64,000 bases of DNA, taken from NCBI RefSeq assembly GCF_041886205.1, contig NZ_CP169029.1; one strand, given 5' to 3'. Positions 3,654-9,665 of this stretch are shown here, piece after piece. Origin of the DNA: Escherichia coli. GTDB lineage: Bacteria > Pseudomonadota > Gammaproteobacteria > Enterobacterales > Enterobacteriaceae. Numbering within the stretch: the stretch's first letter is position 1; each line of letters opens with the position of its first letter. Made by a program: the position numbers and the translations under genes. Under the pieces are notes generated by a model. The model was not told where the DNA came from, did not search any database, and saw nothing but the letters and a program-made list of their open reading frames with translations.

Positions 3654-4562
3654 CTAATTCTGCTGTAAAAAGTGCAGAAACTGACTTAAAGCATAAGAAG
3701 GCGTTTCGTTATTGCGCCAGAACACACCGACGCTGCCTTTCTGTTCTATCTTTGGCAGGTTGAGGATCACCAGTTGTCCCTGGCTGGCATAACGTTGCGC
3801 CAGGCGTAATGACAAAATAGAGATCATATCGCTGCTTTGTAACAGGTTGGTACTGACGTTCATCGACGCCGACTCAATCGTGTTTTCTGGCAGCATCACG
3901 CCGTGGTCTACCAGCGCATTATCAATGCTGATGCGGATGGGGGTACCTGTCGGCCAGACTATCCACCGCCAGTTAGCAAGATCATTCCAGCTGAGGGTGG
4001 CGTATTTCGCCAGTGGATGCTCAGGACGGGCGACAAAACACACCGGCTCGGTGTAGAGCACGCGATAATTCAGCGGCAGCTGCAACGCGCGACCGCCAAT
4101 TCGCCCAACCACCACATCGACAGAACCTGCCAACAGATCTTGCAGCAATGGGGTCATCACCTTCTCTTCGATATTCAGGTGTAGAGTTGGCATCTCCTTG
4201 AGCAAATGCAAAATCGCCTGGGATACGCAGTCAGTGGCGACGGGAGAACAGCCAATTTTCAGACTGCCGACCAGACCACCTTGTTTAAAACGGGCCAGTT
4301 CATGTTGCGAGCGCTCCATGTCATTGATTAACCGTTGGGCATGTTGCAATAACAATTTGCCGCCTTCAGTAGGACGAAGTCCTTTGCTGTGCCGCTCAAA
4401 AAGTGTGAGTCCGATCTCATCTTCCAGATGTGACAACCATTTCGAAAGCGCGGGTTGGGTGATATTCATCATCCGTGCGACATGGGTCAGATTACCCTGT
4501 TCACCCAGCGCCACCAGCATTTGCAGGTGATGAAGCTTTAGTTTCTGCGCCCAGTTTGCCAT
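3654..4562 (-). CDS. LysR-family transcriptional regulator of the gentisate cluster (MhbR-like), 302 aa
   Basis: N-terminal HTH (LKLHHLQMLVALGEQGNLTHVARMMNITQPALSKWLSHLE) typical of LTTRs; divergent from catabolic operon. Confidence 0.85.
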   Translation of the reverse strand: MANWAQKLKLHHLQMLVALGEQGNLTHVARMMNITQPALSKWLSHLEDEIGLTLFERHSKGLRPTEGGKLLLQHAQRLINDMERSQHELARFKQGGLVGSLKIGCSPVATDCVSQAILHLLKEMPTLHLNIEEKVMTPLLQDLLAGSVDVVVGRIGGRALQLPLNYRVLYTEPVCFVARPEHPLAKYATLSWNDLANWRWIVWPTGTPIRISIDNALVDHGVMLPENTIESASMNVSTNLLQSSDMISILSLRLAQRYASQGQLVILNLPKIEQKGSVGVFWRNNETPSYALSQFLHFLQQN

Positions 4563-4567
4563 TTGCC

Positions 4568-4583
4568 ATAACCTTCAGGTTAT
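4568..4583. promoter_or_regulatory. perfect 16-bp palindrome ATAACCTTCAGGTTAT, candidate LTTR operator in divergent promoter region
   Basis: Dyad-symmetric sequence read directly in the 126-bp regulator/transporter intergenic region; role inferred. Confidence 0.3.
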
Positions 4584-4688
4584 CTCTCTGCTCGAAATGC
4601 CATTGTACATTTCATCTCTTTAATCACAATATCGCAACATACACAAAACAAAAGAAACATCTACCTTACCTGCACTGAGGCATTTACT

Positions 4689-6047
4689 ATGACTCAACGA
4701 CGTGATCTACAAGCACTGATCGATGCCGCTCCGGTCGGCAAGATGCAGTGGCGCGTTATCATCTGCTGTTTTCTGGTGGTAATGCTCGATGGTTTTGACA
4801 CCGCGGCTATCGGCTTTATCGCCCCTGATATTCGCACTCACTGGCAACTCACCGCAGGCGATCTCGCCCCGCTTTTTGGCGCGGGTCTGCTGGGGTTAAC
4901 CGCAGGCGCACTGCTTTGTGGCCCGTTGTCCGATCGCTTTGGTCGCAAACGGGTGATTGAGCTGTGTGTCTTTTTGTTTGGCGCGTTAAGCCTTGCCTCG
5001 GCTTTCTCACCGGATCTGCAAACGCTGGTATTCCTGCGTTTCCTAACCGGCCTTGGGCTGGGTGGCGCGATGCCAAACACCATCACCATAACCTCGGAAT
5101 ATCTGCCTGCCCGCCGCCGCGGCGCGCTGGTGACGCTGATGTTTTGCGGCTTTACGCTGGGTTCGGCGTTTGGCGGGATTGTTAGCGCGCAGCTGGTGCC
5201 GGTGATTGGCTGGCACGGCATTCTGGTGTTGGGGGGCGTGTTACCGCTGATGCTGTTTGTCGCACTGCTGGTAGTTCTGCCGGAATCGCCACGCTGGCAG
5301 GTGCGCCGCCAGCTACCGCAGGCGGTGATTGCGAAAACCGTCAGCGCCATCACCCGCGAGCGTTATGTCGATACCCACTTTTATCTCATTGAATCAGCCT
5401 CCGTTACAAAAGGCAGCATTCGTCAACTGTTTATGGGACGTCAGTTACCCATCACGTTGATGCTGTGGGTAGTGTTCTTTATGAGCCTGCTGATTATTTA
5501 CCTGCTCTCAAGCTGGATGCCGACGCTACTGAACCATCGCGGCATCGACCTGCAACACGCGTCCTGGGTCACCGCCGCGTTCCAGATTGGTGGTACGTTA
5601 GGCGCGCTGGCGCTGGGTGTGCTGATGGATAAGTTCAATCCTTTCCGCGTACTGGCACTGAGCTATGCCATAGGCGCTGTATGCATCGTGATGATTGGCT
5701 TAAGCCAGGACGGATTATGGCTGATGGCGCTGGCGATTTTCGGCACCGGCATTGGTATTAGCGGATCGCAGGTGGGGCTGAATGCGCTGACCGCCACACT
5801 TTATCCAACACAAAGTCGCGCCACGGGCGTGAGTTGGTCAAACGCCGTGGGTCGCTGCGGTGCGATTGTTGGCTCGCTTTCTGGCGGCGTGATGATGGCG
5901 ATGAATTTCTCTTTCGACACCCTGTTTTTCATTATCGCTGTGCCCGCGGCGATCAGTGCGGTGATGTTAGCCTTGCTGATTACCGTGGTTCGCCAGTCGA
6001 CCTCTGTCCCTGACTCACTGCCTCGCGCAGGCGTTGTGAACGAATAA
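4689..6047 (+). CDS. MFS aromatic-acid:H+ symporter (3-hydroxybenzoate/gentisate transporter, MhbT-like), 452 aa
   Basis: 452-aa 12-TM ORF with MFS signature [11 protein letters not shown]; first gene of catabolic operon. Confidence 0.85.
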
Positions 6048-6058
6048 GGAGCATCCTA

Positions 6059-7087
6059 ATGACTGATAACAATCAAAATAGCCGCGAACAATTTTATCAG
6101 CACATTTCCGGGCAAAACCTGACCCCGCTGTGGGAGTCACTACACCATCTGGTGCCGAAAACGCCCAACGCTAACTGTGTGCCAGCGTACTGGAATTATC
6201 AGGAGATCCGCCCGCTGCTGCTGGAGAGCGGCAGCCTGATTGGCGCGAAAGAGGCGGTGCGCCGCGTGCTGGTGCTGGAAAACCCGGCGCTGCGCGGGCA
6301 GTCTTCCATCACCGCGACTTTATATGCCGGTTTGCAACTGATCATGCCGGGCGAAGTGGCACCGAGTCATCGCCATAACCAGTCGGCGCTGCGTTTTATT
6401 GTTGAAGGCAAAGGGGCATTTACCGCCGTTGACGGCGAACGCACGCCAATGAATGAGGGCGATTTTATCCTCACTCCGCAGTGGCGCTGGCACGATCACG
6501 GTAACCCTGGCGACGAACCAGTTATCTGGCTCGATGGGCTGGATCTGCCATTAGTGAATACTCTGGGCTGCGGTTTTGCCGAAGATTACCCGGAAGAGCA
6601 ACAACCGGTAACGCGTAAAGAGGGCGATTATCTGCCGCGTTACGCTGCCAATATGTTGCCGCTGCGCCATCAGACCGGGAACTCCTCACCCATCTTTAAC
6701 TACCGTTATGACCGCAGCCGCGAAGTGCTGCACGATTTAACCCGCCTGGGCGATGCCGATGAGTGGGATGGCTACAAAATGCGCTACGTCAACCCGGTCA
6801 CCGGTGGCTATCCGATGCCGTCGATGGGCGCTTTCCTGCAACTGCTGCCGAAAGGGTTCGCCTCCCGCGTGGCGCGTACCACTGACAGCACCATCTATCA
6901 CGTGGTGGAAGGCGGCGGGCAGGTCACCATCGGCAATGAAACCTTCAGCTTTAGTGCAAAAGATATCTTCGTGGTGCCGACCTGGCACGGCGTGTCGTTC
7001 CAGACCACGCAAGATACCGTGTTATTCAGTTTTTCGGACAGACCGGTACAAGAAGCCCTGGGACTGTTCCGCGAAGCGCGTTATTAA
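6059..7087 (+). CDS. gentisate 1,2-dioxygenase (bicupin), 342 aa
   Basis: 342-aa ORF with cupin His motif ([16 protein letters not shown] ... WRWHDHGN); size typical of gentisate dioxygenases. Confidence 0.85.
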
Positions 7088-7102
7088 TTTGGGAGAGAAA
7101 AA

Positions 7103-7804
7103 ATGACTCAATACGTATTCGAACCACAAGCGCCCGTTACCGTACCGGTTGTTGGCAGTGATGAACAATTCCCCGTGCGCCGCGTGTACTGCGTCGGACG
7201 TAACTATGCCGCCCACGCCCGCGAAATGGGCTTTGATCCGGATCGTGAACCGCCATTCTTCTTCTGCAAACCGGCGGATGCCGTTGTTCCGGTTGCCGCT
7301 GGCGAAACGCTGGCGCTGCCGTATCCGGCGCAGACCGATAACTACCATTACGAAATTGAACTGGTGGTGGCGATTGGTAAAAAGGGCAGTGATATCCCGC
7401 TGGAAAACGCCCATGAATATGTCTGGGGTTATGCCACGGGTCTTGATATGACTCGTCGTGACCGTCAAATGGAAATGCGCCAGATGGGCCGCCCGTGGGA
7501 AATCGGCAAAGCGTTTGATCTCTCGGCCCCCATCGCGCCGCTGCACAAAGCCAGCGAAACCGGCGGTATTGATAACGCGCCAATCTGGTTACAGGTTAAC
7601 GGCGAAGATCATCAGCGCAGCGATATTCGCCATCTCATCTGGTCAGTGAATGAAACCATCAGCTACCTGTCCGGCTTTTTTGAACTGCAACCGGGCGATC
7701 TGATCTTCACCGGTACGCCGGAAGGGGTTGGCCCGGTAGTGAAAGGTGATGTGATCACGGGCAACGTCGAGGGCTTAACGCCTATCGCGGTGAAAATTGT
7801 CTGA
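7103..7804 (+). CDS. fumarylpyruvate hydrolase (FAH family), 233 aa
   Basis: 233-aa FAH-fold ORF directly downstream of the dioxygenase. Confidence 0.8.
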
Positions 7805-7809
7805 GGTGC

Positions 7810-8457
7810 ATGATGAAGCTGTACAGTTTTTTTAATAGTTCAGCATCGTACCGGGTACGCATTGCGCTGGCGCTGAAAGGCATTGATTACCATACCGAAG
7901 GGGTGAATATCCGCATTGGTCAGCAAAATGAACTGGCCTACCGGCGGATGAATCCGGTCGGGCTGGTGCCGACGCTGCTGACTGACGAGGGCGAATCACT
8001 TGGACAATCGCTGGCGATTATTGACTGGCTGGATCGTCACTACCCCCAAGTTCCGCTGATGCCGCAGGAAGAGCCGGCCCGCAACAAGGTGCTGGAAATT
8101 GTCTATGCCATCGCCTGTGATATTCATCCACTGAATAACCTGCGCGTGCTGCGCTACCTGACCGAAGAGCTGAACGTCAGTGAAGAAGATAAAAAACGCT
8201 GGTATGCGCACTGGATCCAGCAAGGGTTAAGCGCGGTGGAACAGCTGTTGCGCCAGAGCCAGTCGGGGCAATTTTGCGTGGGCGAGACGCCGACGCTGGC
8301 AGATTGCTGCCTTGTCCCGCAGTGGGCGAACGCGCTACGCATGAACTGCGATCTGAGTGGGTATCCGCGCTGCAAAGCGGTGTACGACGCCTGCACGCAG
8401 CTGCCAGCGTTCATTGCCGCAGCGCCAGAAAATCAACAAGATAAAATTTCAGCCTGA
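7810..8457 (+). CDS. maleylpyruvate isomerase (GST zeta-like), 215 aa
   Basis: GST N-terminal thioredoxin-like fold (MKLYSFFNSSASYRVRIALALKGIDY); operon context. Confidence 0.8.
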   Translation: MMKLYSFFNSSASYRVRIALALKGIDYHTEGVNIRIGQQNELAYRRMNPVGLVPTLLTDEGESLGQSLAIIDWLDRHYPQVPLMPQEEPARNKVLEIVYAIACDIHPLNNLRVLRYLTEELNVSEEDKKRWYAHWIQQGLSAVEQLLRQSQSGQFCVGETPTLADCCLVPQWANALRMNCDLSGYPRCKAVYDACTQLPAFIAAAPENQQDKISA

Positions 8458-8468
8458 CCAGGAGAACC

Positions 8469-9665
8469 ATGATGACTAAAGTGACACGCGCAGTAATTGT
8501 GGGAGGCGGGATCGGCGGTGCGGCAACTGCGCTGTCACTGGCCCGCCAGGGGATCAAAGTGGTGCTGCTGGAAAAGGCGCATGAGATTGGTGAGATTGGC
8601 GCGGGCATCCAGTTGGGGCCAAATGCGTTTTCGGCGTTGGATAGCCTCGGCGTCGGCGAAATCGCCCGCCAGCGCGCGGTATTCACCGATCACATCACCA
8701 TGATGGATGCGGTAAACGCCGAAGAAGTGGTGCGCATTGAAACCGGTCAGGCCTTTCGCGACCATTTCGGCGGCCCTTACGCGGTGATCCACCGGGTTGA
8801 TATTCACGCCTCGGTGTGGGAAGCGGTACTGACGCATCCGGACGTGGAATATCACACCTCCACCAACGTCGTGGATATTCGTGAGACGGAAGACGATGTC
8901 ACCGTGTTTGACGATCGCGGCAATAGCTGGAGCGGCGATATTCTGATTGGCTGTGATGGCGTGAAGTCAGTGGTGCGCCAGAGCTTATTAGGCGATGCGC
9001 CGCGCGTCACCGGACATGTGGTCTACCGCGCAGTTATCGATTGTGCGGATATGCCGGAAGATTTGCGCATTAACGCACCAGTACTGTGGGCGGGGCCGCA
9101 CTGTCACCTGGTGCATTACCCTTTGCGCGGCGGCAAGCAGTATAACCTGGTGGTGACATTCCACAGCCGCCAGCAGGAAGAGTGGGGCGTGAAGGATGGC
9201 AGTAAAGAGGAAGTGCTCTCTTACTTTGAAGGGATTCACCCCCGTCCTCGCCAGATGCTGGATAAACCGACCTCCTGGCGACGCTGGTCAACCGCCGACC
9301 GTGAACCGGTAGCGAAGTGGGGAACGAAGCGCATTACGCTGGTTGGCGATGCGGCCCATCCGGTGGCGCAGTATATGGCGCAGGGTGCCTGTATGGCGTT
9401 GGAAGACGCGGTAACGCTCGGCAAGGCGCTGGCGCAGTGTGAGGGGGATGCGGCGCAAGCCTTTGCACTGTATGAGTCGGTACGTATTCCGCGCACCGCG
9501 CGCATCGTCTGGTCGACCCGTGAAATGGGGCGGGTTTATCACGCCGCAGGAGTAGAGCGCCAGGTACGAAACCTGCTGTGGAAAGGTAAATCGCAGGCAG
9601 AGTTTTACCGCGGCATGGAGTGGCTGTACGGCTGGAAAGAAGATAACTGTCTGCAACCACGCTGA
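8469..9665 (+). CDS. 3-hydroxybenzoate 6-hydroxylase (FAD-dependent monooxygenase), 398 aa
   Basis: Rossmann GxGxxG ([20 protein letters not shown]) near N-terminus; salicylate-hydroxylase-like length; last gene of cluster. Confidence 0.8.

Follow-up and report, generated by a model that had tools for sequence, protein, structure and literature searches.

The divergent gap between a LysR-type regulator gene and a transporter gene in Escherichia coli contains a short inverted repeat beside the regulator's start codon, and the question raised by this locus is whether the repeat is a binding site of the neighbouring regulator or owes its symmetry to something else. We examined it within a 64,000-nucleotide stretch of E. 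coli DNA, referred to here as the window. A sequence-only reading had described a 16-bp dyad with 6-bp arms and a 4-bp spacer, 6-21 bp upstream of the LysR start codon and inside a 126-bp region separating the regulator from the transporter. The gap indeed spans the 126 bp from 4563 to 4688, with a G+C content of 37% versus 51% for the window, and the dyad lies at 4568-4583. From the comparison of orthologous sequences, we consider it very probable that this dyad is a high-affinity recognition site of the adjacent regulator, a member of the PcaQ-like subfamily and the E. coli counterpart of MhbR. The genes and the site concerned are as follows.

3654..4562, minus strand: LysR-type regulator gene, 302 aa, in the mhbR position of an mhbRTDHIM cluster, PcaQ-like (Pfam, NCBIfam, RefSeq)
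4568..4583, no strand assigned: putative recognition site of the LysR regulator, ATAACCTTCAGGTTAT (ATAACC-TTCA-GGTTAT; orthologue-invariant arms, PcaQ motif match)
4689..6047, plus strand: mhbT, aromatic acid/H+ symporter (3-hydroxybenzoate transporter), 452 aa, first gene of the operon (NCBIfam symporter models)
6059-7087, plus strand: gentisate 1,2-dioxygenase (NCBIfam equivalog, 599.9 bits versus a cutoff of 442.1)
7103-7804, plus strand: FAH-family (fumarylpyruvate-hydrolase-like) hydrolase, assigned at the family level only (NF007967, 154.5 bits versus a cutoff of 201)
7810-8457, plus strand: maleylpyruvate/maleylacetoacetate isomerase (NCBIfam equivalog, 308.4 bits versus a cutoff of 171.05)
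8469-9665, plus strand: 3-hydroxybenzoate 6-monooxygenase (NCBIfam equivalog, 760.4 bits versus a cutoff of 459)

The regulator is a LysR-type protein by both of its domains, with Pfam HTH_1 (PF00126; 63.6 bits, residues 10-68) and LysR_substrate (PF03466; 123.8 bits, residues 95-301) each scoring above the gathering cutoff. Its best NCBIfam model is TIGR02424 (PcaQ), for which its 187.2 bits fall under the equivalog cutoff of 303.8, and its identity to Sinorhizobium PcaQ is 29% over the whole protein and roughly one third within the HTH region. The neighbours likewise differ from those of a PcaQ equivalog, being mhbT and gentisate-pathway genes instead of divergent protocatechuate pca genes. 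RefSeq names the product "LysR family transcriptional regulator" and the gene at 4689..6047 "mhbT: 3-hydroxybenzoate transporter MhbT", while the name MhbR for the regulator protein is absent from the database sources queried. By family assignment, the genes downstream of mhbT make up a complete 3-hydroxybenzoate-to-gentisate pathway, and together with mhbT they span 4689-9665. The order observed, a regulator divergent from transporter, dioxygenase, hydrolase, isomerase, and hydroxylase genes, is that of an MhbR-type locus. The mhbRTDHIM arrangement is known from Klebsiella pneumoniae M5a1 (PMC3572157 and PMC5343071), where mhbR likewise diverges from mhbTDHIM with the same gene order, and K. 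pneumoniae MhbR is reported to activate mhbTDHI as a LysR-type regulator (PMC3572157). The gene order is also shared by Klebsiella species with regulators of 84-86% identity.

The window is chromosomal E. coli DNA and matches several complete genomes at 100% identity. Of 5426 complete E. coli genomes, 613 (~11%) carry the regulator-transporter segment, and the mhb cluster is thus an accessory trait of the species. It is also plasmid-borne, at 26 plasmid locations among the E. coli genomes, and E. coli and Salmonella plasmids carry regulators that are 90-95% identical; several plasmid-collection records of 3.9-4.9 Mb (E. coli, A. baumannii) are evidently misfiled chromosomes. A contig labelled "MAG: Collinsella sp.", nominally actinobacterial (L001), encodes a regulator 98% identical to that of E. 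coli with the same gap, and it is probably a mis-binned Escherichia contig.

The site itself, ATAACCTTCAGGTTAT, occupies positions 6-21 bp upstream of the regulator's ATG (start codon 4562-4560), leaving 5 bp between box and start. It had been called a perfect palindrome, which holds for the arms of the 6-N4-6 reading, the form used in the literature for this motif; over the full 16 bp, the symmetry extends to 14 of 16 positions, and an equally valid description is of 7-bp arms, ATAACCT and AGGTTAT, flanking a non-symmetric TC. Inverted repeats whose arms are 7 bp or longer and whose spacer does not exceed 6 bp number 44 in the window, which corresponds to an expectation of 0.087 in 126 bp. 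The exact pattern ATAACC-N4-GGTTAT occurs a single time in the 64 kb, at ATAACCTTCAGGTTAT. With up to two mismatches allowed, there are 5 matches compared to 1.64 expected in the window, a modest excess over chance; the four non-exact ones are at 9142, 42158, 47935, and 55999, the first of which falls inside the 3-hydroxybenzoate monooxygenase reading frame.

Conservation was assessed using one genome per species in 44 loci with close relatives of the regulator (76-98% identity). These loci represent more than 15 enterobacterial genera, including Escherichia, Citrobacter, Trabulsiella, Klebsiella, Raoultella, Serratia, Kluyvera, Pseudocitrobacter, Pluralibacter, Cedecea, and Entomohabitans, as well as Salmonella arizonae. 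The pattern ATAAC(C/T)-N4-GGTTAT is present in all 44, beginning 5-6 bp from the regulator start codon. Within an alignment of 36 sequences, the mean column entropy is 0.03 bits for the left arm and 0.00 bits for the right arm, versus 0.49 bits for the four central bases. The 5 bp that separate the box from the ATG average 1.23 bits, the 9 bp flanking it on the side away from the ATG 0.85 bits, and the entire gap 0.61 bits. The gap is 125-128 bp long in most loci and 168-170 bp in the Kluyvera group, which carries a 43-bp insertion near mhbT. In K. oxytoca, K. michiganensis, and K. grimontii, whose regulators are 84-86% identical to that of the window (85% for the first two), the box reads ATAACCTCCAGGTTAT at the same place, the spacer being TCCA in those Klebsiella species versus TTCA in the window.

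The half-sites are also retained in all of five further orthologues with 65-74% protein identity, in which an MFS transporter gene adjoins the regulator (5/5) and a cupin dioxygenase gene comes next (4/5). Within this more divergent set, the box is ATAACTCCCAGGTTAT in Xenorhabdus, ATAACCTCCGGGTTAT in Shimwellia, ATAACCTCCAGGTTAT in both Serratia proteamaculans and a Pectobacteriaceae strain, and ATAACTCCAGGTTAT, shorter by one base, in Leminorella. The Leminorella sequence (L064, ~2480-2495) is one of two natural versions with a 3-bp spacer, and hence T-N11-A spacing, the other being ATAACCAGTGGTTAT from an A. baumannii homologue (L058, 2438-2452). Such N3 boxes suggest that the regulator tolerates a 1-bp shift in the spacing of its half-sites. 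At 28-42% identity, the box is absent from the homologues compared (Pseudomonas XWY-1, Burkholderia arboris, Leisingera, a Comamonadaceae strain, Azospirillum, C. necator N-1, Niveispirillum, Methylobacterium, and Caballeronia), which have other dyads or none. As judged from these sequences, the box marks a sub-lineage and not every PcaQ-like match, and because regulators in this identity range use different dyads, specificity is not transferable by homology alone. One of them, a LysR regulator on plasmid pXWY of Pseudomonas sp. XWY-1 (42% identical), diverges from gtdA without the box; the locus (L045, 2925-2960) instead has the dyad ATTATTCGC-N14-GCGAATAAT, which argues that more than one type of LysR operator controls gentisate operons.

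When the box is compared to operators of studied regulators, the closest correspondence is with that of PcaQ. ATAACC-N4-GGTTAT is the motif that PMC3557286 cites for the Sinorhizobium meliloti LysR regulator PcaQ, and the E. coli box agrees with the quoted motif at 12 of its 12 specified bases. In the mutagenised PcaQ site described in PMC5002191, ATAaccgggggatTAT, whose centre is 65.5 bp upstream of the target, changes to the outer ATA/TAT lower activation; on the basis of the same paper, the box layout of the PcaQ subfamily is ATA-N10-TAT, which exceeds the usual LysR box by one base. This layout accounts for a departure that had already been remarked on in the sequence-only reading: T4569 and its symmetric partner A4582 are separated by 12 bases and not by the exactly 11 of the textbook T-N11-A arrangement.

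We also observe boxes of this kind directly in rhizobial pcaQ-pcaD gaps. Read toward pcaD, the S. meliloti pSymB gap contains ATAACC-CCCT-GGTTAA, 7 bp from the pcaQ start, which matches the E. coli box at 11 of 12 specified bases. The corresponding sequence is ATAACT-N4-GGTTAT in Sinorhizobium sp. B11 and in Rhizobium leguminosarum, and it is ATAACC-N4-AGTTAA in Ensifer adhaerens and in Phyllobacterium. The box lies 7-8 bp from the pcaQ ATG in the four rhizobial loci with an annotated start (the E. adhaerens record is unannotated), and in the window it similarly sits in the divergent gap adjoining the regulator start. The likeness to the PcaQ operator of the S. meliloti pcaD and pcaM promoters (MacLean et al. 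2008 and 2011, as cited in PMC3557286 and PMC5002191) includes the half-sites, the N4 spacing, and a place in the divergent gap 5-8 bp from the start, as well as a GAAAnGCC element that follows the box in both systems. The two differ in that PcaQ targets pcaDCHGB, whereas the operon here is a transporter-headed one for gentisate/3-hydroxybenzoate, and in that the PcaQ gap is ~94 bp versus 126 bp here, with GAAAnGCC 9 bp farther from the box in the window. In light of the rhizobial gaps, the E. coli box shares half-sites, spacing, and position with the studied operator of the nearest characterised regulator family, and this match, taken with the invariance of the half-sites, leads us to regard it as the putative primary recognition site of the regulator. 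The proposal of an autoregulatory or activation box is thereby strengthened by a genuine LysR neighbour, invariant half-sites, and agreement with the PcaQ motif.

Textbook LysR boxes, such as those of BenM, CatM, CbnR, and CatR, have the form ATAC-N7-GTAT with T-N11-A spacing. The resemblance of the box to these systems is one of design: the dyad is interrupted, its half-sites are centred roughly a helical turn apart, it precedes a weak promoter in a divergent gap, and a dual role in activation and autorepression is expected (see also PMC5002191). The textbook box is 15 bp long (T-N11-A), whereas the one here is 16 bp (T-N12-A), and the half-site sequences differ. The PcaQ-type LysR regulator PA2206 of Pseudomonas aeruginosa binds ATTGCCTGGGGTTAT, as shown by EMSA (PMC3557286). 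Although that regulator is of the same type and its box is related in sequence, PA2206 is not divergently paired with its target, and its box is N3-spaced with a degenerate left half, unlike that in the window.

The box further overlaps a translation signal of the regulator, which is read from the opposite strand:

4572..4576, minus strand: Shine-Dalgarno GAAGG of the regulator mRNA, 9 nt before the ATG, inside the spacer and right arm of the box

On the mRNA strand, the box of most species reads ATAACC-TGGA-GGTTAT, with GGAGG lying 9 nt ahead of the ATG. In 36/36 orthologues the spacer on this strand is rich in purines and Shine-Dalgarno-like, with the variants GGAGGG, TGGGGG, TGAGGG, and AGGAGG, and part of the conservation of the box, that of the spacer and the GG, could stem from a ribosome-binding role. 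The window has T at 4575, a position that is C in nearly every other genus and in the closest E. coli genomes (TTCA versus TCCA); this rare C-to-T change converts the Shine-Dalgarno from GGAGG to GAAGG, so that the mRNA of the window reads TGAAGG. It is the sole difference from the closest E. coli allele across a 73-bp query (4548-4620), with one further difference downstream in the gap and outside that interval, and 12 of the 215 E. coli records matched by the query are identical to the window. A dual use of the same 16 nt, as the operator of the regulator at the DNA level and as a Shine-Dalgarno hairpin of the regulator leader at the RNA level, seems to us rather unlikely. If true, it would mean that the N4 spacer is constrained by translation and not by the protein, that synthesis of the regulator is tuned at both transcription and translation, and that the C-to-T allele would lower regulator translation while leaving the operator arms untouched.

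The same overlap underlies a different explanation, in which the element is mainly an RNA one: a 6-bp leader hairpin, AUAACC-UGAA-GGUUAU, that would limit regulator translation by sequestering part of the Shine-Dalgarno. The Shine-Dalgarno does fall within the spacer and right arm, and the centroid fold of the leader is this hairpin (-4.9 kcal/mol), but the leader folds no better than its shuffles (z = 0.43), and there are zero Rfam matches at E-values up to 1. The invariance of the arms leaves them without compensatory change, and those substitutions that do occur break the pairing (ATAACT in Serratia UMH3 and Xenorhabdus, AGTTAT in rhizobia). The same half-sites are moreover found with N3 spacing, and an A/U-rich stem of 6 bp would be readily melted by the ribosome. 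We consider a mainly RNA-based role quite improbable on these grounds; a function at the RNA level could be a minor add-on to the main one. A terminator scan of the gap found no terminator-like sites.

We consider it highly improbable that the dyad is the operator of some DNA-binding protein other than the adjacent LysR regulator, for example a global repressor or one that responds to xenobiotics. Palindromes of this size suit many dimeric regulators, yet in enterics, rhizobia, and Acinetobacter, which differ in both their target operons and their backgrounds, the box stays with the regulator gene, always 5-8 bp from its ATG. It is moreover identical to the motif reported for homologous PcaQ, and inspection by eye showed no likeness to the CRP or FNR consensus. 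As for a functionless palindrome arising by chance in AT-rich intergenic DNA, short inverted repeats are common enough in the window, but with the low expectation calculated above for a gap of this length and with arms that stay invariant across more than 15 genera while the neighbouring bases vary, this explanation is effectively refuted and retains next to no probability.

How recognition of the box by the LysR regulator might control both genes depends on where it lies relative to their promoters. The elements of the gap that bear on this are:

4602..4607, minus strand: predicted -10 TACAAT of the regulator promoter (promoter scan; invariant in 36/36 orthologues)
4624..4629, minus strand: predicted -35 TTGTGA of the regulator promoter, 16-bp spacer (promoter scan; TTGT invariant in 36/36)
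4603..4632, plus strand: candidate weak activator-dependent mhbT promoter, -35 TTGTAC at 4603-4608 and -10 CAATAT at 4627-4632 (proposed)
4594..4601, no strand assigned: candidate secondary (activation) site GAAATGCC (proposed from conservation)
4677..4680, plus strand: Shine-Dalgarno GAGG of mhbT (GAGGC invariant in the alignment)

The promoter scan of the gap returned one promoter-like site, on the minus strand (TTGTGA-16-TACAAT), and made no call for mhbT. In divergent orthologues, TACAAT becomes GATAAT or TATAAT, keeping a -10. The predicted transcription start of the regulator is at ~4593-4598, which would place the box at ~+12 to +27 of the leader. The candidate mhbT hexamers each match the consensus at 3/6 positions, with A2 and T6 of the -10 invariant in the alignment, and an alternative -10 is CAACAT at 4635-4640. 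We infer that such weak plus-strand hexamers are as expected of an activator-dependent mhbT promoter. The predicted mhbT start is ~4639 with CAATAT or ~4647 with CAACAT, and the box centre, 4575.5, would then be at about -64 to -72, where LysR recognition sites classically lie. With respect to these predicted promoters, the position of the box fits both mhbT activation and autorepression of the regulator.

The candidate secondary site derives from a conserved element on the mhbT side of the box: GAAA(T/A)(G/A)CC at 4594-4601 is nearly invariant in enteric orthologues, and GAAAnGCC is found downstream of the box in the rhizobial pcaQ-pcaD gaps (L060, L062, L046, L049, L061). E. adhaerens even shares an 11-mer, TGAAATGCCAT, with window positions 4593-4603, located 9 bp closer to the box. 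The shared GAAAnGCC may be a common secondary LysR site or a remnant of the shared ancestry of the control region. Other repeats around this element did not hold up as binding sites. The second dyad, GAAATG-N8-CATTTC (4594-4613), is not kept, its right arm being CAACTC in Kluyvera and Pseudocitrobacter, and within this segment only GAAA..CC and CCATTGTACA are conserved. A direct repeat of ATCTCT (4582-4587 and 4614-4619) falls in poorly conserved columns and is probably due to chance. The TGTACA palindrome in the invariant block becomes CCATTATC in divergent orthologues, and because this change retains the minus-strand -10, we read the block as a promoter element and not as a binding dyad.

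Taken together with the proposed recognition of the box by the regulator, these elements suggest a mechanism. The winged-helix domains of one dimer would read the half-sites ATAAC(C) and (G)GTTAT, centred ~11 bp from each other, and the second dimer of the tetramer would contact a weaker downstream site, for which GAAATGCC at 4594-4601, beside the poor mhbT -35, is the candidate. Once bound to its effector, the tetramer would reposition and recruit RNA polymerase, leading to transcription of mhbT and the gentisate genes. The same complex would lie over ~+12 to +27 of the regulator transcript and, via the secondary site, would cover the regulator -10 and start, giving autorepression. Candidate effectors are 3-hydroxybenzoate, gentisate, and the ring-cleavage product maleylpyruvate. 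In Cupriavidus necator, the LysR regulator of a gentisate operon responds to maleylpyruvate and not to gentisate (PMC11603403), which raises the possibility that the effector here is neither 3-hydroxybenzoate nor gentisate.

The box is an ordinary control site of a well-understood kind, and it leaves the understanding of LysR regulators unchanged. What it adds is the occurrence of the PcaQ-type box in enterobacterial gentisate operons, beyond the protocatechuate operons of alpha-proteobacteria, and a testable putative operator for an unannotated regulator of accessory 3-hydroxybenzoate/gentisate catabolism in E. coli. It could be used in annotation, in regulon prediction via ATAAC(C/T)-N3-4-GGTTAT, and in hydroxybenzoate or gentisate biosensors. 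Full-text searches of the MhbR/mhbT literature gave secondary mentions only; as far as these show, the site is not known to have been documented for E. coli before, and the Klebsiella MhbR study (Lin et al. 2010, Microbiol Res 165:66; PMID 18801651) may describe an orthologous site.

Finally, we observe several features in the presumed mhbT leader. The 43-bp insertion of the Kluyvera/Pseudenterobacter loci (L023-L028, L036, L039) is located ~25-70 bp upstream of mhbT and falls downstream of ~4664, a placement that is consistent with all control elements being upstream of ~4664. It holds a 6-7-bp inverted repeat, GCCGTTC...GAACGGC, with G-U-compatible variants (alignment A1, columns 118-160), and terminates in GGATAACCTGCAC, which repeats the left half of the box exactly. 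A conserved leader segment, CTTACCTGCAC at 4664-4675, lies shortly before the mhbT Shine-Dalgarno and resembles the box left half ATAACCTTCA, and its equivalent in Kluyvera is an exact ATAACCTGCA.
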